NCBI RefSeq assembly: GCF_000497125.1
Contig: NC_090599.1
Span: 496,001-560,000 of the forward strand
Origin: Spironucleus salmonicida
Taxonomy: Eukaryota
Direction: 5' to 3'
DNA length: 64,000 bases
Shown here: piece after piece, positions 9,679-60,179 of the stretch
Layout of the letters: each line of letters begins with the position of its first letter
Position numbering within the stretch: the stretch's first letter is position 1
Notes under the pieces: model-generated
Database searches by the model: none
Told to the model about the DNA's origin: nothing
What the model saw: the letters and a program-made list of their open reading frames with translations, nothing else
Program-made: the position numbers and the translations under genes

Positions 9679-11562
9679 TCACTCAATCCGTTCCACAGTC
9701 AGCTGTTAAATCCTAGTTACCTGATCAACAAAGTCGACCAGCCTGAACTCTTTCAGAAATCCCTCGAACATGCCTGCCAGAACCTGGACGAATACATTAT
9801 GCTGCCCGTCAAAAGGCTGTTTTTCAACTTCTTTTTCTTCTCCTTTTTTAAGCAAAAACTGCAGATTTTCAGACTTGAGGAATGCAACGCCCTCCCCGGA
9901 GTTGCGGACGACGATGTTTTCGCCCCTCGGCTCGCATGTCAGGTCCAGGAGGCCGAAAATACCGAAGAGCGGAACTGTCTGGGCATAGCCCTCGCCTTTG
10001 ATCATTAAGAGCCCGGAAACGAGCGGTTTTAGATCACCTCGCGGGGCAAACTCCACAGTGAGGTCCTGGAACTGTCCCCCCGTGATGGAAATTTACTACT
10101 TGTCCAGTTTGAAGTTTTAACAGTCTTATTATACGCTCTCATGTGCCACAGCGACCGTATCCTGTAGCGAAATAGTCAGATTCAGTGTTTCTTGCGTTGG
10201 GTTTTTGATTCGAACTTTGGCAATTTCGCTGTATAGCTGGTTAGCAGGTGGAAAGAAAAGTTGATTTGGAATTGTAATCAATTGGGCAGTTTCCTGAAGG
10301 TCGCTTTTCGAGGGTACTTGTGTTAAGAGGTACTGCGAGCCGATCGATGGGGTGGAATGGGGTGGTGATGGAGGTGCTTTGGATGGTTCTAATGCCTTTT
10401 AAAGTATTTCTGGAGCCGGTGCTGGGGCCGGTTCAGATGCTTCTACAGTTTGCTGTTGGAGTACTTCTTCCACTGTAGGCTGTTAAATTTGTTAGAATTC
10501 CTCTTCTTCAATGATATCAGAGAGGTTCTCCTGTGGTTCAGAGTCGATAAAAGATTTTTCAAAAGGAACGCAGTCATCCATTTCGTCTAAGTACAAAGGG
10601 GAAATAAATTGCTTAGGAATCGAAGCTTCGGTAAACGTAACCTATTTTTAGTCAGAAATGATCTCGGGCACTTCAAAAGTTGGGACCCAGGTGTCAACTT
10701 AGGGGTGGTCTTATTCTACTGCATCGGATATCTACTATTAAGAAGCAGATATAGACTGACCTCCTACCTAGCTAAAGTTCAAAATACTCATTTTTGCTTC
10801 TTAGATTATACTTTCTGGTATGTCTAACCCCGAATCATAACAGTATTTTGAGTGGTGCTTTTTCCCTGCTGATACTACTGAGGGAGCGTATACTTCTCCC
10901 GGCGGGAAAGAGCTAACAGTAGATCCGCTTGAGAGCTTTGAGTTGAATACCGCGGATTGTGGGAGGTATGTGTTGTTATTGGATTCATTAATGAATGCGT
11001 CTTGAAAGAAAACTGTGTGATTAATGACAGGTGACTGATATGCTTGAACTGGTAATACTTAGGATGCATACTAAGACTAATATAACTAGCTATTATTAAT
11101 AGATTATGATTAGTTCATGCTTTATTATTGACTTAAGGATGAGATATTAAAATCTTTTTAAGTTTCAAAATATAATATAACATACACTATAGACACACCC
11201 CCTAAGCAGATTTCAAGTTAACACATACCAGAACCTATAGCCCCAGATTATACATGTATTTTCGAAACCCATACTTATTCAGTGATATGCTCTAACAAAG
11301 GAGAACAAGAAACTGTAACACCCTCTGATGTTGTTTTTAAAACGTACTAGTGACCATTGGTTGCTAAAAAACTGACTGCTATATCTTTTGGCTAGCCAAC
11401 TGTTAGTTATATTTACTGTTAAGATTTAAATGTTGTTTTAGGAAAACCATTATCTTCATATAAGGCTATACAGTTATCGTAGTTTGGAATAGGTTATATT
11501 GATGCAATCTACGAAGCTTATGAAAATCTTGAAAATGTGAGATTTGATGTTGATAAGTTCAT
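9679..11562 (-). CDS. Ig-like/ASH (SPD-2/CEP192-like) domain protein, 627 aa; paralogue of 13414..15009
   Basis: Open code-6 frame checked base by base; C-terminal beta-sandwich-like region VRIKNPTQ...VEFAP...VPLFG...VVRNSGEGVAF; ends GAG-TGA. Confidence 0.75.
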
Positions 11563-13413: not shown

Positions 13414-15009
13414 ATGTATAATTCGATGAGCGCCTCGCAGTTTATGAGAGCGTCCCAAATACAAGCCATAGAACCTGTAATTAACGGAATCCAAGGCCCA
13501 GCGCTCGTACAGGACCACTCTTTCCCACTTCTGACGTACAAAACCGCCCAGCCAATTACGCTATCCAGCACGTAGCAGTCAGAAATCGTCGTAAAGCTTC
13601 TGGCCCAAAATCCGGGTCCCGTAGCGCTTCAGACGAGCAATTCGAACGTTATCGCCTCCTGCGACCCCTACCTGAGCCAAATCGCTCAGGAGGTCTTCCA
13701 GTGCACCGTGCGCGCCACGGGCGTCATCGCCGGCGTCGGAAGCTGCCAGATTCAGCTCGTCATGAACGGAAAAACGAGCTGTTATATCATACTCAATTTC
13801 GCGACTGAGACCCCTTCGGGGCAGTTCGGGGGGTCTCACTTTTCGCAGAATCAGTCGATTTTGCCCGTTTCGACCTCAATCGCAAACGGCTTTTTCGGAA
13901 GTACTAACCAGCCAAATTCGCCGATGAAAGCGAGCTATTTCGCGCCATCTACGCCGGTTTAGCAGGGTGTGTAGCAGGGTGTGTAGCGCCACCACAGCCC
14001 GTACTGCTACGGCGCCGAGATTCCGGACGGGGTCGTTGAGGGGGTCAGGAGGTCGAATTTGGAGTTCTCGCAGTCGGGTCTGGGCGCTAGCCAGGGAAAA
14101 ATGGGGGGCAGCCAGGTCCGCGTGCAGCCTGAAATTCAGATTTCGCAGCAGCCGCAGGTCGCAAATACGCCGAAAATCGCTAAAAAAGAAGAAATGCAGC
14201 TAGAACGGACCGCTGGGGCTCAGAAAAGCGGTTCAGACAAGTCGGTTGAGGAGGAGATGCAGCAGGTGCGCGGGGAGGTCTAGCAGTCGTAAAAAGAGCA
14301 GTCTGATGAGGTGAAAAAATCTAAGCTGTCTGCATCGGAATTGAACAGCAGCAAAGGGCAGAGGGAGTCTAAAATAAGGGTTATTCCGTCGTGTTTGCTG
14401 CTGCCTCCTGCCTCCACGTAGCTCTCGTCTATCGCTATGGTGCGTGTTAAAAACTGTTAATCTGAGCCGATTGAGCTCAAGTTTAAGGCGGTTCCAAGGT
14501 CGTTTTCGACATCTACATCCAATGCTTAATTTCCGCAACTGAAGGCGGGCTCTGATTCCTTTTCGGTGACGCCTGAGTTCTGTACTTTAGAAAAGAATCA
14601 GCATATCGATTTAAAAGTAGAATTTAAGCCAGAGTCAATTTAGTACATTTTGGAGGGTTGCAAGATACTAATTACGGACAGCACAAAAGCGTGGTAGATT
14701 CCGGTACTAGCGTTGGCTGGTTTACCTGATATTTCGGCTCACTCAGATAGCAAAAAGTAGGAAATTCGGTTAAGAAATGACGGTGACGGTGTTGCTGTTG
14801 TATAAGCTAATGGTGAAAGTGTAATTATTTAGCCTGGGGCGAGTGCAGTCGTGGATTATTAGACAAGTTTTAAGGTATTCCACGATGGCTTGAGAATGAT
14901 TTTAGACTCCGAATGGTCTGATATGATTGGGGTAATGGGTATGAAAGGCATAGAAAATTAGGTAGAGAGGTTGGTAGAATTGACGTGTTCTGTTGTTGAA
15001 GTTGAGTGA
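13414..15009 (+). CDS. Ig-like/ASH (SPD-2/CEP192-like) domain protein, 531 aa; paralogue of 9679..11562
   Basis: Joins ORF-track 13708..13962 and 14059..14283 through TAG; C-terminal VRVKNCQ...VEFKP...IPVLA...LRNDGDGVAV; ends GAG-TGA. Confidence 0.8.
13960..13987 (+). repeat. 12-bp in-frame tandem duplication TAGCAGGGTGTG x2.3 (QQGV repeat)
   Basis: tagcagggtgtg tagcagggtgtg tagc read directly. Confidence 0.85.
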
Positions 15010-30085: not shown

Positions 30086-31705
30086 TCACTCAATAATAAT
30101 CTAACTATCATTTTTATTATGATATGTTGATCTACCAGTTAATCTAACAATTTCTTTACAAATCCCTTTCAAATAAGAATCTACCTTTTATTATGTTAAT
30201 TGTTAAGGAAATTTTTCTAAATTTAAGTATTATTAAATTTTTGGATATTTAAACGAATTTAGGTAGCTTATACTTGCCGATGGCACGTTCTTATATTCTA
30301 AAATGATTTAGTTTATGAATCTATCCAATGGCGGTATCATATTGGTTTTTTAAAGGTTTATTTTAGGTTAAGTATTTTTCTACCATGTCTTAAGATCAAT
30401 TGAAAGACCAGATTTTAAATCAGCATCTACTACTTTATTTCTTACATCGTCTTTAGCATGCGAATTTACTGTCTATAGACTTAATGGTAAATCAATTGAG
30501 GCCATATCCTTATCGTATTTAATATGTTTTCTTTACTGTCTTTTCTTCTAAGTTTCTTTTTATTATATTAAATTTTCTGTTTCATCAATACTATCATCAA
30601 GTTTTGAATTCTCCGACTATACATCTGATTCTTCCCCTTCATATTCAAAAATAGGAGGAATAATTTCCTCTAGGTGTATATTCTATGCGTTTAAGTTTAG
30701 TTAATATTAGTCTTTAAAGAAAGAGGTTAAAGTTGCTACCATTTTCTTTATTCTAGTTCCTTCCTCCGCATAAGCATCTACTTATTAGATTTAAAGCGAG
30801 ATCACTTTGACACCAAATATATCTTTTTATTTAATTACTATTAAATATTAAGATTGGTTGATAATTAAAAAACTATTTATAAAGCTTTCGATAAAAGGTA
30901 AAGAAGATGGAAATAAATTAATCTGGGTTGGAATAGTATATGTATTAGCTGATTTTGTAGATTTTTCTTAAATATCTGTGATTAAGTTTTGTAGCAAGGT
31001 ACCAGCCAATTCTCCAATATGTTTAAATTCAATATTTTAATATTAAAATAGGACAAAATAATTATATTGCTCTACATATCTTTATATGACACAGTTAGTG
31101 TGTTTATCATAAATTTTGTTTAGGCTTTAACTTATTTACGGTAAATTTCCAAAAACTTCTGTACAAATATCCCAAGTAAGAATCCGAGAATCAAAATGTA
31201 AGGCAATAAATTAATCTTCTTTTTAGCTTAATAATCCCATTAATATTCCAGAAAGTTACTATGCGTTAATCCCTTTGAGGCAGCCTATTTCGCTTGCAAT
31301 TCGTGCACCTAAGAAGAAAACAGAATTGAAATTTTCAATGAAAGTTACTAATATTTCTTGAATATAGTGATCTTCTGAAATGATAATTGAGTCTATACCA
31401 ATTAACGCCCCATTCGTATACATTTTCACAAAAGCTAGAAGCAAAATCTGATAATCTGATATAACTTTAGCACGTATCGGCTGATAGCATAATATTTTAA
31501 ATTATGTATTGTGCCCTGGTTATTTTTATTTAAATTTATCTGAAAATCTTAGTAACGCAATTGCCTTTGCAATTAAATCAATGAGGTCACTGATTGATAA
31601 ATTACTAAGTTAAGGATAAATTTCTATTTACTCGTTAGTAATTATATCGGTAGGTTCAAAATTTTGATCCAAATCATCATCAAAAAATGAATCGGTTGCA
31701 CCCAT
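30086..31705 (-). CDS. hypothetical protein, 539 aa; tandem paralogue of 31931..33499
   Basis: Code-6 ORF; shared blocks AKAIALLRF, VKMYTNGALI, HFDSRILTW, RYVEQYNYFVLF. Confidence 0.85.
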
Positions 31706-31930
31706 TCTTAATTTTTATTGATAGTATATTGTTTTTATTATATTATAATATACTTAAATATTTATTAAAGATTAATATTTACTTCTCTAGATTAGAATTT
31801 AATAAATACTGCGAAAGTGTATATAAAACATAATAATGCGCGCAAGTTCTATTTTAGTAATAATTGAACTTTTAAAAATTAATTTATTTTAAAGACTGAA
31901 AATTAAAAATTATTAGTCATTAAAATATAT

Positions 31931-33499
31931 TCATCCTCCAATAATTAATACACCTCTTGATTCATCGCAATAACAGTTCCTCTGAGTTAGCTTAATAACT
32001 TAGTTGCATACAGCATTTAAATTGGTTAAAACTTAACTCGAATTAATCTTAGGATTAATATTAAGGTTAACAAATTTTTAAATTTTTGGATATTTTTATG
32101 CATCTAAAAAACAAATTTCAGCATCTTAATTATCAATAAGTGATGATAGAATTCCTTATAAAAACTCATCTAATTCCGGTATAAGAACTGCAACATTATC
32201 CATTTTTTATTATATCTTGGGTTAAATTTAGATGTTAGGAAGTTTATCTAGTTAAATTTTAAAATTTTCTTTCTCATTAGGCAAAATATTTAGTAACTAC
32301 TCTGATATAGTCTATTTTTTAGCAGTCTGTAAATTAATAGGAACATCCAATGAAGTCATTGACATATCGTACTTAAACTTTGCAATCTTCTTTGGCTTTT
32401 CAACTACTGGTATATCAAAATTATCAAGATCGTCTGATTTTTCGACATTTTAATGTTAATAATCAAATGTTGGAGGTGCAATTTCGTTGATATTAATTTT
32501 TTACGCAACATTTCTTAATTTATTTTAATCTTAGAAAAATTAAATTAACTAATCTACGTACTTAATAGCTTTATGCCCATCTACTGAATCTATTTCAAAC
32601 TTAATTAAATTCAATTTCATAATTCTCATATCATTAACTTCAGTTTCTTGTAGTTTAATTACATATGATTTATTTTATTTGATAAGTGAATCATTACAAA
32701 ATGCTTCTAAAAACTAAAGAGATGAAGGAAGTATTTAAAATTCAACTGGAACATCAATAATATACTAGGCAGAATTTTCGCAATTATCTAAAATAAAATT
32801 AACTATTTCTAAAACGTTTCCCTCTACTAGATCTAATAAAGTAAAAAATTCCTAAACTTTGTATACAAAAAGTACAAAGTAATTGTATTAGGTAACATAC
32901 CTTGAACATATTATGTTATACTCCTCCCCAAGTTCAAGAGCAATGTTTGGAAGTAATTTAAAAAATTCAAAAACTTATTCCCAGCTGAGAACTCTAGTAT
33001 CGAAATGAAAAGGTATAAAACATTGCCCTTATTTATTTTTAACTAGCCCAACTACAACTCCAAGTAATCCATCTTTTCCAACTTCTTCAGCAATTTTTGC
33101 CCCAAAATAGTAAAATTAATTAAAATTTTCATAAAAGTCAAAATCTACATAATCAGCTTGGTTTTATCCATACATTAAAACTTTTCGCTAACAACTCCGC
33201 AATGCTATAAGAGCCCCATTTGTGTACATTTTTACAAGCGCCAAAATTGCATCATTATATCTAATAATTATATCTCCTGAAAAGGGATGGACACAAATCA
33301 CGGTGATTTTTGTTGATTTTCCAGGTTATATTTTTTTGAAATTAGGGTCGAAACGTAGGAGAGAAATTGACTTTGCTAATAAGTCTAGAAGATTTTGAAG
33401 AGAAAATTATAGATAATCCGCATTTAAATAAATAGTATTGTTTTTAATCATCTCTGACGGATCTGGATTAGGTATTGTGAACTATGGTGCAATTCCCAT
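31931..33499 (-). CDS. hypothetical protein, 522 aa; tandem paralogue of 30086..31705
   Basis: Code-6 ORF; shared blocks AKSISLLRF, VKMYTNGALI, HFDTRVLSW, RYVTQYNYFVLF. Confidence 0.85.
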
Positions 33500-40868: not shown

Positions 40869-41912
40869 ATGAGTTTGACAGAATATGAGGAAAAGCGCAA
40901 AATGTATCAAAATGAATTAGAATAATATAGAAATTATAAGAATACTATATGTATTATTAACCCAAAATTACGTTATATATAAGAAAATGAAATTGAACCA
41001 GCTTCCCAGCATATTTCATCATTTACGTCTTAAGATGAGATTTCAATTTTAAATATATCTTAGAAGGATTAGTTTGAGTTAGAATAAGAACGGTAGTAGT
41101 AATTTTTAAGCGAATAAATTGAGACTGTTAAAAGAGCTTAAAATTATTTAAATAGCAAGGATACCTTGAAAACTAAGGTTGTGCCAAAAATAGAACATAA
41201 TTAGCATATTTTTATTGATATAAAGAGATAAAATTAGGATATATCAAAGAACTTTGAGGAGTAACCATACATGACTCAGTAACCTGTTCTGGTTAGAGAA
41301 TAAACACATAAGCCTTATGTTAAATAAGTGTAAGAAAACATAGTTTAGTAGAAAAAAATCAGCGAAAGTATTAAATAGTAGCCAGATAATGTCCAAAATA
41401 CTAAAATTTAGCATTATTAGAATATTCTGTCTTCAACATAGGATTTTATTCAATAAAATAAAGTAGTATCACCAGATCGTTAAATTACATTAAAATAGAT
41501 TGAACTATAGGGAAGCCTTAAGAAAACCATTTCTGAATTAACTGAAATGGAAAAGTAGAACGCGTCACACAAAGAAACCTTTTATAACACAGATGCAGCC
41601 TTGATGGTAGAAAGGCAGTCAAGAATTCTTAATAATTTTGCAATGAGCAATCTATCAGAGCCGGGTAAATTATCACTATCTAGAACCGAAATCAACAATG
41701 TCCTAGACTAGCATGACCAACCACACCTTGGTGATGACTAGTAGCAAAAGTCAGCCTCGATTGCCATCTAAAGTTAGGCATTCAAAAAATCCAGGAAGCC
41801 CCAATTGTAAAGCCAGCTTTTCATGGCGCGAGTCTCAACTTTCGGCGAGAGCTTCGGAACACTAAGTTAGACTAGCTAAGATTATCTCAAATGGCGCAGA
41901 GGTGGCGAGTGA
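40869..41912 (+). CDS. Q/E-rich hypothetical protein, 347 aa
   Basis: Open code-6 frame, ends GAG-TGA. Confidence 0.75.
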
Positions 41913-41992
41913 CTATATTTGAATACATATTTGCCGCCTAAACTGCACTTCAATTTCAATGTCTCTATCGAAAATTCACTCCAAATTCGAAA

Positions 41993-42925
41993 ATGGACGA
42001 TCTGACTCAGGACTTGTACGCCGAAAACCTGAAACTCAAGAACATCATCGAGGAACAGAACTTGCAAATGAAAGACCTAGACGCCCTACAGCTTATCTCC
42101 TCGGGTTTAGAGCGGCAGAACGACTTCCTGCGCTAGTAAATTCCGCTTCAAAACGCCGAGGAAATCATGAAATCGGAAGCTTAGTTACAGCTCATGAAGA
42201 ACTAGTTCGCGGCGCTGCAGCAAACGCACGCTACGCTGGACACGAAGTTCTCGCAAATCTCGAAATCGGACCAGATTTCGGCCCAGGCGCTCAAGAAGGA
42301 GAACGAGGGCCTCAAGAGCCAAATTCAGCAGATCCAAAGCTTCCTCCAGAACAACGAAAACTACACCGGAAACCTCGTGCAGAAGTACTCCGCAATCGCG
42401 CAGAAAACGAAGCTGACGGAGCAGTTCGTGCTAGCTAACGCGCAGCAAGCACCAAGCTACGACAACTGCTTGCGCGACTTCAGAGAGCATTTCAAGTTCT
42501 TCAAGCAGATTTTTGCGGTGTTTCCGGTGCTCAGCGACGTGCAGAGCCAGTTCAAAATCGCGCAGCTCCAGACGCTGGCGAGCCCCGACTTCCTGGCGAA
42601 ATTCGGCGTCCCGTTCGAGATTGCGGTCAGCGCAGCCTCGTTCCAGCCCGAAATCCAGAACCACTTCGCTAGCAACTGGAACGACATCTTCGAGTCTCAT
42701 CTTCTTGAGTTCGTCCGCGAAAAATTCTAGGAAATTGGTGCTTTGCGAGGGGCGAATCGTCCGGTCGATAAGCGCCTTTTCGAACTCGACGAGCGAGAGT
42801 TCGACTCCGGCTTCGTGTGCAATTTCCTCGCGGTCTGCCTCGTGCTGCAAGGCTTCGAGCTGGCCCTAGACGGCGCTGGGGTGTGCTTCCGGCGCGGCTC
42901 AGGCGTGTGGTATTTGGACGTTTGA
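41993..42925 (+). CDS. coiled-coil hypothetical protein, 310 aa
   Basis: Joins ORF-track 42377..42730 and 42743..42925 in one frame; AGTGA shortly after the stop. Confidence 0.8.
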
Positions 42926-50933: not shown

Positions 50934-51817
50934 TTTAGACAGAAATTTGGAAGAATAATATTATATATAAAATAAATAGTAAAGATATGAATATGAAGGT
51001 TATTTAATAATATAATACCAGATATTGTTAAATTTAATGATTAAATTGTTAATCTTGTGAAGAAATAATATTTGTGCGATTACTTATTCATAATGATATT
51101 GCCTTTCTAAATATTTTGTTAATTTTTAGTAAAAAGAATAACTATGATTAATAAACAAATTTATAATTAGTAAATAGTATCTCTACCATATTAATTATAT
51201 GTACACGTATATTGAAGTACATATCAAGTGGTGTCTTGCTGAACTCTGCATAAGATATTTTTTCTATTAATACTTATTTGCTATATTTAACTACAATTTA
51301 TATATTGATACGTTGAAAAGTATATAATGATAAATACATAATAGGTGAGGCGTAATATGTGTGAACAAATATTAAAGCTTTGCAAATATAAATTTTAGAA
51401 ACTGATTTACGTCAGTTTATACATTTAGCATACACATAAAGCATTCTTAATTATTATTTAAGATTATAATTAATTCATAAATCCATACTTCTATAGCATA
51501 TTTTATCATAATAATTTATTTACTGAAAAAATTAAACTAATTATCATAAATATTTTTTATTATACAGATATTTTAAATCCTAGAATTAAGCCTTAGAATA
51601 GACTTATATGTATATATGAGATAATAATATAAAAATTTGTATATATTAAATAAAAATTATATCACTAAAATTTACAATTTATAGATATTATTATTTATTT
51701 CCATGATATTCACTTTTATAATATAATCTGAAATAAATAAGTTTAAATGTGGTTTTTATTATTTATAATTTATATTAATTATATAAATAATTTAATAATT
51801 AAAAATCACTTTTCAAA

Positions 51818-53026: not shown

Positions 53027-55045
53027 TCATTTCATTTTTTCAAGTTTGTGACGGACGATTTCCTCAAACTCATTGGGCCCGAGAGCGTTCTGCAGGACAG
53101 AAATACTACGCCAATCCGTGAGTATTTTTCGCACTATTCGTGTTGCTTTATTACGTTTTTTGGCATATTTTAGTAGTAAGTGAAAGATAGTTTCTATGAT
53201 CTTACGAAGATATTTCTAATACTAATAATTAGCTATTTTAACGTATTTAGCATTCAATTTAATCGCTTTGAAGGCTTTCAGCAGAAGTAAATTTTACTTA
53301 AAGAGGAATACAAACTTGAATTATTACTGGATAGAAATTAGATGTACGAATGAAAGTTTTTATAATCTTAGAAAATTATGGGAAATAGCCAACTTTTAGG
53401 AAGAAAGAGCCATGAATTGTAATTTTAAGAGGGTTTTATAGGTTTTATTGAGGAGCTGCTAAGTTTTCTGGGTAATTGCTTTCATTTATAGAAATTATAA
53501 ATGGGTGGAATATGTTTAAACTGCTTTAAAATATGGCTGGATGAATATTGTTTCGATTGATTATCGGACTAACTTTAAGCTGTAGATTTTATGAATTAAA
53601 GCTGAAAATGATGTTTTTGCAGTGTAAAACTAGTGTATTTCTTGTGCTTAAAGGTTCTATTTTTAAAGCTTATAAAACCTCAACTTAAATATTAAGTATG
53701 TGTTGGATAAAAATTTTGCGTTACTCAGGCGTATCGCAAATATAAAAAGTTATAAATTGTTTACAAGCTACTATTATAAAAAGCTAAAAAGATACTTCTA
53801 CTACCGTTATTTATTGTTTAACTAAAGGCTATCAAAAATTATTGATTTCCCCAATTAAGTTACAGTTTATACTTTATTTAAGAGTTAAAAAAGGACAGAT
53901 CTTTGTAGCAACAAATTTGATGTGACTTTAATTAAAATTTCAGCATTTTGAAGTTTATGAAAATAATTTTTAAGATAGTGAAACAGTGACTTAGCAAGCC
54001 GTTAATTTATTTTATCTATAATTTAATACTCTGTCTGCTAATTATTATTATAACGATCTATAAATATATAAAATGATTTTTTCAATATTTTATTAAAATA
54101 ATTTTAGTTCTAAGCGTTCAACATTCGCCAATTTACTAATCCATAACGTTTAATATTTCCATAAATTAATTTTTATATAATAACTTCCTTATAGAAATGT
54201 CTGAGTTACTTATAACAAAAACCGATTTTTTTCTATTACATCTGCACCTAAAAGATATAAGCAGTATACTATTGTTGTTTTATTGTATTAAAATTTGTAA
54301 TAAATTTATAAAATGTAGATTTCATTAATTCATAACCAATATTCCTACGTATAATTCCTAGGCATTAAAATTTTATCATCAGTTTCAAATAATATGATTA
54401 AATCTATTTCATTTTTGTTATTTTTAGCTAATATTCTTACATTTACAGTAATTAAAATTTGGTTTTAATTTGAATAAATAATTTTTAAATTAATAGTTTT
54501 TATTTCTAAATAATAAATCGTTATTTTCTATGGATAACTACAATTTAAAGAAAGTAAGACCTTTTAGATTAAATAATATTATTTTATAATAAAACTTTCC
54601 CTTTTAACTCAACAAAGGCGTATTTTTTATATTTCCTTTCATAAAAATACCGAATAATTGGCTATAAACTCTTGATATAAGTATAATAATTCTTAATAAC
54701 GTAAAAAATCTGTATAAGTAAAATCCTTTTACCATTACATTTAATTTTACTAATAATAGTTGCGTAGTTTCTCCATTCATAGAACGAACGTGCCAAGATC
54801 AGAGGATGAAGGGGATTTATCTAAGTTTATTGAAAAATTTAACTTGTACTTTTTTTCAGCAGGTAATTAATCTTTTAAGGAGAAAACTAAACTGATAAGT
54901 TCACATCTGGGGCTGAACCTATTGAAAAAGATAGCAATGAATCAGTTAAAGGAATTTTATTTTCAGGTTGTGGTGCTTATTAGCGAGAGGTATTTAATTT
55001 AGCTAGAAAGGAATCAACATCAAAATTAGAATCTAACAATTCCAT
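53027..55045 (-). CDS. basic helical-repeat protein, Sfi1-like (tentative), 672 aa
   Basis: Open frame checked base by base; recurring basic F/L..W repeats (RSFYEWRNY, GLVNWRM, ILTDWRS). Confidence 0.7.
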
Positions 55046-55100
55046 AAATTTTTAAATATATTATAAATATATAAGAATATTAGTTTAATCATTTTTGTAT

Positions 55101-55379
55101 ATGCACATGAAGTCTGAAGTTATTGTGTAGTTACCATCATAGTTGTTCCTTCATTAATCCGCGAAGCCTTAGTCTTAAATATTGTATGATTATTTATAGT
55201 ATGAGAAAATATTTGAAGTTGAGTCAAATATTTATAACAAGAATTAGTCAATTACTGGAACATTGCTTTAACATTTTTCTGAAAATATATTAATATAATC
55301 CATGATTAAGAGACCATATTAAAAAACTTAGCTTCTCATTGCTAGCATAGGGAGTCTTTTTCAATTTAAATTAAAGTGA
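55101..55379 (+). CDS. hypothetical protein, 92 aa
   Basis: ATG-TGA code-6 frame ending AAG-TGA. Confidence 0.5.
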
Positions 55380-55551
55380 ATCATTATTAATTGATTTAAA
55401 GATATATTTATTCTATCAAGTACAAAATTAGCAATATCTTTATTTATCAATTATATTTATCATACTTTCGCAATTATTTTAATTTACTATGTATGTTGTT
55501 ATATAAATAAAATTTTAATAATATATAATAAACTTAAACAAAGTTTCTAAT

Positions 55552-58500
55552 TCATTCATTATTTAGTACACTCTAAACAGATTTAACATTGAATTTTTCT
55601 ATTTGTTATTCAACAAAAAGAGAATAAAATGTTTTTGTTTCAAAACTACTAATTTACCATATTTATTAGTTAGCATGTATAAATCTTGTAATACCATTAA
55701 CTACAATTTTATTATATGTTGTACCTATTTCAACCAAGATGCCGACACCAATAGAAGGAACAAATATAGTATCAAGCAATTTTATTTACTATGCATTTTA
55801 TTAAACTTCAAATATATTTAATATAAAGTCTGCTTTTTCGCATGAAATATTTAACTTTTTAACTTCAGTAATCTACTAAATATTCAAATTTAAGGAATCT
55901 TTTAATGTATAGTGATGTCTATTAATAAGCTGTTTCTGCAAATAATAAGATGATTGCGTAATCAAATACAAGAACTAGTCAGTAGATTAAATTTAACCCG
56001 TAGAAAATGGATAATCATCACCAAATATAATTTCTGATGGTTTAATACAATAACAAGGTTTATCATTTAAAATAATATGAAAATCTTTAATATCAATTTT
56101 AGTTTTTGATAAAAGCGGTAATAATTATTTAAACAAATCAGGAAATGCTTTTGAAAATGCTATAATAATAACAGCACCTTTATAAGTTATTTTATGATCT
56201 ATAGATATTAATGATAAATCGATAATATCATCAAAATTTGCACACATTCCAAGTTCTCGGGTCGCATTATCAGGACATGATATTAAAATAGACCCCATAA
56301 GTTTATTGATTTATTGTTCAGTAATATTAAAACCAATCTAGTTCTACAAATATTCTAAAGTTACTGTTTATGCTTGATTATTCATAACTTAATTTAAAAT
56401 TGTATCCTAAATAGGATAATATTTAATTTAATTGATAACATCAACGTTATTTTAATTGATAAGACATTAATTAATATTATCAATTGGAATTAAATATTTA
56501 AAACATTCGAATAGTTATTTGGAGATTTATTAAATCATATTTTCAGCTAACTATAATGTTAAGATTTCTTAATTTTTGTTCATAATTTCAATTTAATAAA
56601 ATTAAAAAAACTACGATAAGTGTCCAATATCTCGTACGCAAATACTATTTCCAGATAAAATAGCGTTTATACTCAATTTATGCGTTAATGATTAATCTCT
56701 ATCAATTAGAGACATAGGGATAACACTATATGGTTGATCATCGAAAATAGATAAGGAAGACACAAATGGCTCGTTCTTCATATGAACTTACTATTTCAAG
56801 ACTTCGTTAATATCACATACACAATCAGAAACTATAAAATGGATGTTGTCATTATAAATATAGCCTTTATTGGCATAAAAATATTATTTGGCTAGCTTAA
56901 GTAGGCCTTTAACATCATGTTATTTCAATACTTAATTATTTTTAAGATCAAATATTTGGTCACCATATATTATGCCAATTATATTTCCTACTATATCTCC
57001 ACCAGAAATTTATTGAGTAAATATATTAAGTATATCATCTCCGAAATAGTATACTAGATTGTTAGTTAATTCTTCAGGGAAAATTTCAAATTTATTATCT
57101 GTTTCACTTATTGTATCGATTTCATCTGATAGGGAATTTACAGAAGTAGTAAGTAATATAGAAGTTGATTAGTAATCATGAGAAATAATGCTAAATTTTG
57201 AGTTGAGCTTTGAAATTTATTAAATATTCTCTGTTAATATCTATAAATTTTAATTAAATTATAATCCTGATTAACTAAAGTATTATTAAATAGGAGGCTG
57301 TTAGTTATTAGCACCTTACAAAAAGATATGAGGTTATTTACAATAAAGAAAAACATTATCATCTAGCTTAAAAGATTCTTATGGTAAATAACTTTATTTT
57401 AAAACTTTTTCTTAACAACTAATTAATTAATAGTTTTTAAATTCAGCTTTATTTTTTATATATGATGTTAATACAAATTATAAAGGTTGGAAAAGTAAAT
57501 CAAGGGCTTCATTATCCTCTTTTAAAAATAAAGTTTCTTTGTCTGTAATAACAACTACGCTTCTTTCATCAAACTAAAAGTTTTAAAATCCTAAATTTTC
57601 GTATTAATAAGAGCTTAAACCTAAAGTTGATAAGTTAGGATACTTACCATTAAGTTTCATATTTCTAACTAAAAATGGAGATATAGTATGTTTCAATTAA
57701 AAATTTTCTAATTTTATTTCAGTCCATTTTTAGGTTTACTCAGTTGGTACAAACTTAAAAAGAAGTGATTTGGGGATTTGCTTATAAAACGAATTATTCG
57801 CTTATTTTTCGAATAAAAATGACGGGCCTTAATAATCCCACAACAAATTTGCATTCTTTATATTAGCTGATTATACTATAAATGCTTCGCAATATTATGA
57901 TATTAACGATGAGAATAAAGCAAATTTATATGGATAAACAATATACTGGTTAGAATTATTAAAAATTGAAAATAAAATAGACTGAAATGATTTAAAATAG
58001 TCTCTAATCATATTTACTGTAAATTAATATTATCCAATCCATTGGTTTGCCTCTAAAATTTTGTTTACTTCATCTGAAGGTTATTAGTTCAAAGCCAAGT
58101 TTAAGGATAGATCATAAAGAGCGATTATATCATAATTTTTATGCTAAATTTAATCTAAATTTAATATTCTTTCCTCAATTAATTCTACAGCACATACTTT
58201 TTTGTAGTATTAAGTTTTATAAAACCGTAAAACCTAATTGCTCAATTAATAATCAGACAATACTTTCCCCAGTGGTAATGTAGTAATTTTATTTAAAGAT
58301 TCTTATGTAATTGCATTAGTAATGGTTTGCAAATCATATTTTAATGCTCCTTTGTATTCTTGATCAATATTTAATTAATTTAACTTATTAACTTCCTTGA
58401 TATCATTAATTACCCACAGTAATTCATTTTTAGACATAATTTTAAAAATTTATTAAATTGTAAAATAATTTATTTTTTAATTTTCCTATTAAACAATATT

Positions 58501-59481
58501 GAAAAATGGATACGAAAGTAAATTATTTTTTTAATAGTATTCAATTAATTAATCTAATAAACCATTTTTAAATGTCTATCCAGGCATTTCTGGCAAATAG
58601 CTACAACCAGAAAACAATACTAAGGCTATAAAATCAGAAATGAGTGCTTTCGTAAATGAATGTTCGAAAATTTTCTATCTAATGTTTTGTGAATCCTTAA
58701 TATTTGCAACATTAACAATTTCATCATATAATGACTAATATAGATTTACCATATTAGATTAAGAATTTAGATAATCTTATAAAAGATCACAAATTATTAA
58801 CTCTCTTAGTGACTTAAAATCCTATATCCATATTCCATATTCGCAAAAGGTAATATTTGATTCAACTACATCTTATAGAGGTTTTTCATAAATAGGTTAC
58901 TAGACAACAATAACTTTTACTGGTAAATTTTAGTATAAAAACTTCAATCTTTAAGATGTATCGACTCCATAAACATATGAATTACTCTTATTTTAAAGTA
59001 TGATATCATTTACCAAATTGTAATCTTCTTAAAAGCTGATTCTGACTTAGTTTTTAATTAAAAATTATAACTATTCAGTTAAAAATACAATTAAGGTTCT
59101 CATAAATTAGCTTTTTGGAACAAAATCTAAAAATGAAATTTTATCTTCAGGTTATCTATTATAGGCTTCCTATTAATAAAATAATTTATATTATGACTCT
59201 AGTTCACATTTTATTATAGATTACTCATTAAAAATAGGGTTTAAATACAAGACTAAATTTATAGGATTAAATTTATCAACTAGTTGCAGCAATGATTCGA
59301 GAATAATTGACATTGATTCTGTTTATGTGTATATATTACAGTAAGAATTTACACTGACACTATCAAAAGCCAACTGTTATAAGTTAACATAAAGATTTGA
59401 GTTTTTAACATTATTCTTATAACTCTATAATGCCTGAGGATATCTAAATTATAAAAATTTAACAAATCTCGGAACCTCCAT
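55552..59481 (-). CDS. Xrn1-like protein with degenerate active site, 1309 aa
   Basis: Open frame checked base by base; MEVPRFVKFLQFRYP, NLYVNL, YGVD, SDFIALVLFSGCSYLP, YPYKFA, YPNLSTL map in order onto Xrn1 blocks. Confidence 0.8.
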
Positions 59482-59531
59482 TTGAAAAGAAGCGAAAAAT
59501 AAAAATATTATATTTAAATATAAGTTATATT

Positions 59532-60101
59532 TCATTATTTCATAATAAACTTTTTCAATAATTATTTCATTTTCGAATTACATTTTATTTTCATTTTAAC
59601 TCTTCCATTACTAATACTTATTGATTAAAAATACAATAAACTTAATGAAGTAAATTAATCTTTTTATAAAGGTGATATTGAAAGGATTTAACTAGTTCCT
59701 AGATGCATAAGTTCCTGGGGTTCACTCTTATTTAAATTGTATTAAGCTTTAAGTGATTTTCCTGTTTAATCGCTAATACAATATATAAATATTTAATGAA
59801 AACTTTATGTGAAACTCATATTAAGGTAGCTTTATCTTACTCTAATTAAATCTGCAAAATTACTATCATCAATTGGAATACTATTTTCTATTTTATCTCT
59901 TGACTTTAATCTAAAATAAAATTATGTCCTAATTTTTACATTATTAAGTAATTCCCCCTCAATTTATATTAATTAGACTAATTACGAATATTTAAAATTA
60001 AATTCTACATTCTTATTCACATGTTTAAATATTGTTCTTTTATTTAGCAAAAATGTTAGTTTTAATTTTATTTCAATAACCGGTTTATTAATTTTTAACA
60101 T
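59532..60101 (-). CDS. hypothetical protein, 189 aa
   Basis: ATG-TGA code-6 frame filling the gap between two larger genes. Confidence 0.55.
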
Positions 60102-60179
60102 TTATAAATTTAATCTTATTTAATATATAAATTACTAACTTGTTAAGAATTAAAGTAAAATAATACTAAAACTTTAATT

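Follow-up and report, generated by a model that had tools for sequence, protein, structure and literature searches.

A 64,000-nucleotide stretch of DNA (positions 496,001 to 560,000 of contig NC_090599.1, analysed at its full length and called here the window) carries on its minus strand a reading frame of 1309 codons whose product is related to the 5'-3' exoribonuclease XRN1 and has lost most of the catalytic residues of that enzyme. It is likely that this XRN1-like protein is a pseudo-exoribonuclease that has been maintained as a protein, and it may act without catalysis as a binder of RNA or ribonucleoprotein (RNP), or as a scaffold, descended from XRN1. The protein is a full-length and extremely diverged member of the XRN1 type that keeps the XRN fold, with its PIN/FEN-like core, its helical XRN_M region and a D3-like block, and the loss of metal-binding acids, of the phosphate pocket and of the base-stacking residues would preclude 5'-monophosphate-dependent, two-metal exoribonuclease work. 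The degenerate protein would be held by selection, its frame being intact and its state common to fragments of a second organism that probably uses code 6 as well, and its present role would be non-catalytic binding of RNA or RNP, or scaffolding.

An uninterrupted frame under code 6

Translation of the minus strand between positions 55552 and 59481 with genetic code 6 (table 6) gave 1309 residues, with 110 TAA or TAG codons read as glutamine. The open reading frame (ORF) list made with table 11 held no frame of at least 100 amino acids (aa) at this place, and the plus-strand translation was closed by many stops. The intact 1309-codon frame that had been described in an earlier note, made from the letters of the window only (the sequence-only reading), was borne out, the minus strand and code 6, which the note had left unstated, being required. 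The strings quoted there (MEVPRFVKFLQFRYP, NLYVNLQQ, LYLNPIFNEQSIIK, DFVPKSQFM, YGVDTSQ, SDFIALVLFSGCSYLPEMP, YPYKFA and YPNLSTL) were all found in this translation. No internal TGA occurs in the frame, where 24 would be expected from composition (P ~4e-11), and the other five frames of the locus contain 12-66 TGA each; in 500 shuffles the longest run free of TGA was 540 codons. The gene has a G+C content of 0.236, the lowest among the genes compared (0.283-0.413 in the others), and 110 of its 131 glutamine codons are TAA or TAG. An alternative in-frame ATG upstream, at 59583, would give a protein of 1343 aa. The start was kept at the ATG at 59481, since the XRN N-terminal motif begins there and the neighbouring ORF ends at 59532.

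Descent from the XRN family

When the XRN1-like protein was compared by phmmer with 1.84 billion representative proteins, six other proteins were found at E <= 0.001, namely five short fragments and a protein of 2376 aa (P0006). Four of these six scored above the curated Pfam threshold of XRN_N or XRN_M; P0004 had a sub-threshold XRN_N match and P0003 no family. P0006 matched XRN_N at 3e-55, with every catalytic motif present, and in BLASTP two stretches of the XRN1-like protein aligned with it collinearly, residues 159-321 with 226-414 of P0006 (E 6e-14) and residues 1029-1145 with 1684-1798 (E 2e-7). A set of 33 proteins was collected by a profile search that started from P0006 and three of the fragments, and 31 of them, the canonical XRNs of this comparison, were aligned over their N-terminal 950 residues, P0019 and P0039 having been omitted by choice beforehand. 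Against the profile of these 31 proteins, residues 1-720 of the XRN1-like protein gave a local hhalign match of residues 1-367 to 1-370 (E 2.4e-10, probability 96.8%) and, in global mode, a probability of 98.6%. A hidden Markov model (HMM) built from the same 31 sequences found the XRN1-like ORF as its sole match among 605 six-frame segments of the window (E 5.9e-12), in a match that includes residues 260-434. The profile of the XRN1-like protein and its two closest fragments, searched against the PDB, had only yeast Xrn1 (E 0.037) and Caenorhabditis elegans XRN2 (E 0.15) at E <= 1.

The matches stay collinear along the protein, beginning at residue 1 (M-x-V/I-P-R/K-F), passing through the YPYxFA block and ending in a block of the C-terminal part, so that the Xrn1-like order of blocks proposed from the letters was confirmed by BLASTP, hhalign and the HMM together. 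By this significant collinear profile similarity the protein is judged to belong to the XRN family by descent. It is at most 21% identical to the canonical XRNs, and in a tree of 32 XRNs its end branch is 9.23 long, against a median of 0.57, and no supported clade contains it. Since the tree leaves the protein unplaced, its affinity to XRN1 as opposed to XRN2 is read from the C-terminal block alone.

The closest full-length relatives are long XRN1-type proteins, P0006, P0008 (1956 aa) and P0009 (1960 aa), which have the highest identity to the XRN1-like protein among the full-length proteins compared and share with it the C-terminal block and the signature PE-x-PG...K-N-G-x-LD that follows the GND helix. 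The signature, in the form PE-x-PGQ..-N-G, is common to these four proteins and to the fragments P0002, P0005 and P0007, which retain GND. Unlike the XRN1-like protein, P0006, P0008 and P0009 keep all catalytic and pocket residues, are 650-1070 residues longer and have XRN_N scores of 3e-55 and 4e-53.

Other searches added little. A phmmer search of the XRN1-like protein against the PDB gave no match, and a protein-atlas lead to XRN clusters scored 0.80, a level that shuffled proteins attain one-third of the time. When the protein and alignment A1 were used in word-indexed searches, the 8000 candidates that were scored yielded nothing but the protein itself, probably because low-complexity words swamped the result. 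For metagenomes, alignment A1 offered no stretch that is conserved, a scan with the XRN1-like protein and P0003 (A5) gave 135 pattern matches, of which none was confirmed, and a scan with fragments of active type (A6) gave 54 loci of ~27-71 residues each, with 29-48% identity, which are generic XRNs.

Fold of the protein

AlphaFold2 models were made for residues 1-720, from a 37-row alignment, and for residues 1-1200. The shorter model had a predicted template modelling score of 0.71, with residues 1-540 mostly confident and residues 543-720 low. In a Foldseek search with this model all 20 listed rows at E <= 2e-7 were Xrn1, Xrn2 or Rat1, and FEN1 and EXO1 first appeared at rank 28 (E 1.9e-3). 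The comparison with Xrn1 structures that the sequence-only reading had proposed as a check agreed with this, as XRN structures filled the top 17 entries of VIA-align (Z 17.6-13.8, with a model built on an XRN alignment), FEN1-type nucleases reaching at most Z 12.6. The match to human XRN1 had Z 17.6 over 409 aligned residues, with a root-mean-square deviation of 4.6. The XRN fold, that is a FEN/PIN-like core followed by the XRN-specific helical region, is thus predicted to be present. In its block order, its XRN_N-like core and its XRN_M-like helices the protein resembles XRN1/Pacman/Kem1 (2Y35, 3PIE, 6Q8Y and 9E70; Z 17.6-16.6), with which it also has in common the motif skeleton D283/G292/P297 and, in its C-terminal part, a block that can be aligned with D2/D3.

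The evidence for this last block comes from several sources. A four-sequence profile of the block matched an alignment of fungal Xrn1 C-termini (hhalign E 1.4e-4, probability 52%), and its match in the canonical XRN P0010 falls inside PF18334 (XRN1_D2_D3, residues 932-1156). In the longer model the block was the sole C-terminal stretch with a predicted local distance difference test score (pLDDT) above 50 (51-77). The fold search with that model returned only the N-terminal match, the C-terminal part by itself gave no significant hhalign match to fungal Xrn1 (E 0.076), and a protein-atlas search with residues 600-1309 gave no usable match. An alignment of the C-terminal part with whole XRNs (A4) was dropped, being visibly misaligned onto N-terminal motifs. 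The block would support an origin from an XRN1-type protein over an XRN2-type one. Of the 'Xrn1-type C-terminal domains' announced by the sequence-only reading, one D3/winged-helix-like block (~1050-1121) was recovered, and D1 (PAZ/Tudor), D2 (KOW) and the SH3-like D4 were not found by Pfam, hhalign, the models to residue 1200 or the protein-atlas search, a difference from XRN1 that stands beside the replacement of at least four of its seven metal-binding acids and all four of its pocket residues.

Loss of the metal site and of the 5'-phosphate pocket

The XRN1-like protein was compared column by column with the 31 canonical XRNs in a MAFFT alignment (A3), in which the columns were identified from their motifs and carry Xrn1 residue numbers. 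All 31 canonical proteins are invariant at D35, D86, E176, E178, D206, D208 and the Asp of GND, as well as at K93, Q97, R100 and R101. In a review (PMC10590902) the metals are described as held by seven conserved acids, the 5' phosphate as recognised by a basic pocket that is strictly conserved, and the bases as stacked by a His and a Trp, both invariant.

Most of this set is gone (Table 1). The seventh acid (D291 position, the Asp of GND) is S294, with the structural D283 retained, and the residues around it (282-298) form the block that is best conserved with the relatives (BLASTP against P0006, E 6e-14). E176 and E178 correspond to Q151 and D153 by MAFFT and to E152 and Y154 by hhalign, and the H and K of GEHK to Y154 and N155. 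There is no acid at most two residues from the D35, D86 or GND positions. Of the metal-binding acids one is kept for certain (D174) and at most three are kept, so that at least four of seven are gone (the D35, D86, D208 and D291 positions). None of the four residues of the 5'-phosphate pocket is kept, K91 being the only basic residue on that helix. F39 occupies the His41 column, where the canonical set has H or Y, and I514 occupies that of the invariant Trp (W570 of P0010), in a part of the alignment of lower confidence. Forty-eight columns show the same residue in 30 or all 31 of the canonical XRNs; the XRN1-like protein retains 12 of these, 1 of 11 in catalytic or pocket positions and 11 of 37 in the others.

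It had been proposed from the letters that a single one of the seven acids, that of YGVD, was retained; D174 does stand, and the count becomes one certain and at most three, as E152 or D153 may add to it. The absence of PGEGEHK held up, ISFQEDYN being aligned at its place, and the more general proposal of XRN1-type ancestry combined with a dismantled active site was upheld by profile, fold and column-by-column comparison alike. Because at least four of the seven acids, all four pocket residues and both stacking residues are gone, canonical exoribonuclease action would not be expected of this protein.

Relatives with the same losses

Two of the fragments found by phmmer come close to the XRN1-like protein, with 34-51% identity overall. 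P0004 (100 aa) is an N-terminal fragment, 36% identical (E 1.6e-8), that is without D86 (T82) and without the pocket (N89, Y93, D96 and Q97) and retains D33. P0003 (89 aa) is 41-51% identical over residues 219-310 (E 3.9e-10) and reads SGTDLLPEMPG, with the Asp of G-T-D retained. The end of P0003 falls on a Gln of the XRN1-like protein and that of P0004 near a run of Gln, a truncation that would be expected of standard-code gene calling on a code-6 gene, and their source is likely another organism that also reads TAA and TAG as Gln. This second organism would so possess a partly degenerate version of the protein, the loss of D86 and of the pocket being common to both and the D35 and GND acids having been lost further in the present lineage. 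Since D86 and the pocket are lost in the fragments as well, the dead form seems to be conserved, and we infer that the protein is maintained as such because its frame is intact and its degenerate state is shared with them.

Contig cover in sequencing runs and probable transcription

Four sequencing runs of one study contain this stretch. In all four, contigs identical to the window cover the XRN1-like gene in pieces, from 55540 to 59518, with a contig end at 55540 that lies 12 nt past the stop of the gene. In two runs, loose ends made of poly(T) plus adapter adjoin position 60167, 13 nt past the stop of a neighbouring minus-strand gene; such ends beside a stop are expected of poly(A)-primed complementary DNA. 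It is likely that the XRN1-like gene is transcribed. Parts of the window that have no contig cover (e.g. ~53600-54900) provide no evidence, and contig depth cannot rank genes. The ORF upstream of the XRN1-like gene is weakly supported by a loose end of 8 letters of poly(T), located at 59521 (run X2).

The ends at 60167 and 55540, 13 and 12 nt past the stops, suggest very short 3' untranslated regions. Adjacent contigs within one run range in depth from ~4-12 to 680-1817, an unevenness that looks unusual for genomic DNA. At the 5' end of the XRN1-like gene, contigs of runs X2-X4 stop matching the window at 59518 and go on for 138-255 letters, and the 30-letter consensus past this position is absent from the window. 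The preceding dinucleotide of the coding strand is TA and not AG, which rules out a canonical splice acceptor at 59518. A comparable loose end was seen at 51023. Such loose ends could stem from a chimeric contig, from a structural variant upstream or from a genuine 5' extension.

Alternative explanations

Several observations weigh against an interpretation of the gene as a maintained and catalytically dead XRN1. The XRN_N HMM (PF03159), whose use the sequence-only reading had also proposed, matched residues 1-77 only, at E 0.0082 and 16 bits, which is below the gathering cut-off of 22.9 bits, and XRN_M (PF17846) was unreported for the protein in the Pfam scan. As the AlphaFold2 model rests on an XRN alignment, its fold match is not independent of the call of homology, and in the longer model residues 541-1037 had a pLDDT below 50 and residues 1131-1200 were also of low confidence. 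The losses are not concentrated at the catalytic sites, the divergence being general and extreme. Judged from the aligned residues, a compensating acid may be found in space, such as E152 or D153 at the GEGE place, or D40, E86, E93 and D158, which are near in sequence. The four sequencing runs are not on record as RNA.

It could be proposed that the protein is still an active nuclease with a rebuilt, non-canonical site, formed for example by E152, D153, D174 and other acids, and perhaps directed at a different substrate end. The adjacent acids at the GEGE place, the kept D174 and a FEN-like core that is predicted with confidence would agree with such a site, but D35, D86, D208 and the GND Asp (31 of 31 in the canonical set) are N, P, S and S here, three of these four sites have no acid within 2 residues, and replacements extend to all four pocket residues, to H and K of GEHK and to the invariant Trp column; we consider continued activity very improbable. 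That the likeness to XRNs is one of chance or composition, in a frame rich in A+T and in Q, N, I and K, is extremely improbable. The collinear matches from the first residue through YPYxFA to the C-terminal block, the BLASTP scores against P0006 (E 6e-14 and 2e-7), the profile and HMM matches (E 2.4e-10 and 5.9e-12) and a clade profile whose only PDB matches are Xrn1 and XRN2 all speak against it, and are to be set beside a Pfam match that is sub-threshold and limited to residues 1-77, an empty phmmer search of the PDB and a protein-atlas score of 0.80 that one-third of shuffled proteins reach.

A further explanation is that of a functionless duplicate in decay, in a genome rich in duplicates: a pseudogene in the making, still young, with a frame that by chance has stayed open. 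The long end branch (9.23; median 0.57), the lowest G+C content (0.236 against 0.283-0.413), the 110 of 131 Gln codons that are TAA or TAG, the retention of 12 of 48 near-invariant columns and the presence in the window of other diverged local paralogue pairs are what a decaying copy might display. We nevertheless regard such decay as improbable, since the 1309 codons contain no TGA (P ~4e-11 under composition alone), an XRN fold is still predicted with confidence for residues 1-540, the fragments of a second organism are 34-51% identical and have lost the same sites, and contigs of four runs cover the gene. A maintained pseudo-exoribonuclease is the reading that we prefer to these three.

Comparison with known XRN proteins

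Lineage-specific and highly diverged extra members of the XRN family have been described in another protist, Trypanosoma brucei, in which XRNB, XRNC, XRNE and XRNF are of this kind according to PMC3854532, and the XRN1-like protein resembles them in this respect. The same paper reports that the highly diverged XRNE keeps 12 of 13 residues that are essential in Xrn1p, and that it acts in the 5' processing of ribosomal RNA (PMC3854532). Unlike XRNE, the XRN1-like protein has lost most of its catalytic and pocket set.

Engineered dead Xrn1 mutants, among which D208A is another besides E178Q, still bind RNA and partners. Like the E178Q protein (named in the title of 3PIE), the XRN1-like protein combines an XRN1 fold with a loss of catalysis, which is here predicted from sequence. 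Unlike the engineered forms, which are single laboratory substitutions with an intact pocket, it would have lost both site and pocket naturally and broadly. By analogy with these mutants, a non-catalytic role as a scaffold or in binding RNA or RNP may be suggested for it; the sequence-only reading had further proposed that it might bind ribosomes or regulate an active paralogue. Among the titles and abstracts of the top-ranked results in the literature searched, no described natural XRN pseudoenzyme surfaced.

Other genes and features of the window

The coordinates of the XRN1-like gene, of its parts and of its upstream neighbour are collected in Table 1. Under code 6 other large frames of the window matched Pfam families end to end and without interruption, including transketolase, a DEAD-box helicase, RIB43A, a P-type ATPase, a cyclin and ribophorin I, which fits a flagellate that uses code 6 and has few introns. 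The label 'diplomonad', which the sequence-only reading had given, is plausible, as it agrees with code 6, with the long uninterrupted frames and with the contig ends 12-13 nt past stops.

Two pairs of paralogues were seen. The minus-strand frames at 30086-31831 and 31931-33499 are in tandem, have no Pfam family and are 33% identical over 536 residues (E 3e-80), and the frames at 9679-11562 (minus strand) and 13414-15009 (plus strand) are divergently oriented and 25% identical (E 1e-40), the latter with a weak, sub-threshold match to Cep192_D3. A K/Q/I-rich frame of 693 aa at 53027-55108 (minus strand) has 63 reassigned codons and matched no Pfam family; it may have arisen by accident under the single-stop code and not be a gene. 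Between 40001 and 44000 the local G+C content rises up to 0.43, against 0.23-0.39 elsewhere, and long frames overlap on both strands, at 41450-42700 (minus strand, no Pfam family) and 41891-42925 (plus strand).

Table 1. Positions in the window of the XRN1-like gene, its regions and replaced motifs, and the ORF upstream of it
Feature	Position	Strand	Basis or remark
XRN1-like coding sequence (P0001)	55552..59481	-	1309 codons plus TGA stop at 55552-55554; TAA/TAG = Gln
Degenerate XRN_N-like (PIN/FEN-like) core, residues 1-230	58792..59481	-	Pfam, hhalign; AlphaFold2 pLDDT mostly 73-92
XRN_M-like helical region, residues 260-540, including YPYKFA (= YPYHYAP)	57862..58704	-	HMM, global hhalign; AlphaFold2 helical, pLDDT up to 95
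Middle part with no recognisable domain, residues 541-1037	56371..57861	-	pLDDT <50 in both models; no Pfam match
Conserved C-terminal block, residues 1029-1145, core 1051-1121 like Xrn1 D2/D3 (winged-helix)	56047..56397	-	BLASTP, hhalign
N33 at the D35 position (NLYVNLQQ vs NLYxDxNG)	59383..59385	-	D in 31/31 canonical XRNs
Residues 76-97, D86 strand and pocket helix	59191..59256	-	P82, I89, E93, S96, Q97 for D86, K93, Q97, R100, R101
Residues 147-155, ISFQEDYNL for PGEGEHK	59017..59043	-	E152/D153 a possible remnant of E176/E178
Residues 171-177, YGVDTSQ for YGLDADL	58951..58971	-	D174 kept (D206 position), S176 for D208
Residues 282-298, SDFIALVLFSGCSYLPE, for DDF...GNDFLPH	58588..58638	-	C293-S294 for N-D of GND
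Upstream neighbour ORF, 189 aa	59532..60101	-	ORF list; stop 50 nt before the ATG at 59481; argues against a start at 59583

Implications for RNA decay

The finding bears on the organisation of 5'-3' decay in a lineage that has been reported to have a reduced machinery for the decay of messenger RNA (mRNA). For Giardia, one Xrn1-like and one Rat1-like gene are reported in PMC3282835, and several other decay factors are reported as missing in PMC5862402. It is conceivable, if unlikely, that the XRN1-like protein, or its clade, is the only XRN1-type gene of its lineage and not a spare copy. The exhaustive phmmer search with the protein found no second full-length relative other than P0006, which looks G+C-rich, and a canonical-looking XRN of the same genome would escape this search. 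Were it the only such gene, canonical cytoplasmic 5'-3' mRNA decay would have been abandoned or shifted to another nuclease, and the body of XRN1 would have been kept for a non-catalytic job, for example the binding of ribosomes or of mRNA 5' ends.

XRN1 and XRN2 are among the most conserved RNA-decay enzymes of eukaryotes. If the present interpretation is true, a naturally dead and conserved XRN1 would add the XRN family to the nucleases that have pseudoenzyme relatives, and would provide a natural separation-of-function allele for the non-catalytic roles that have been proposed for Xrn1.

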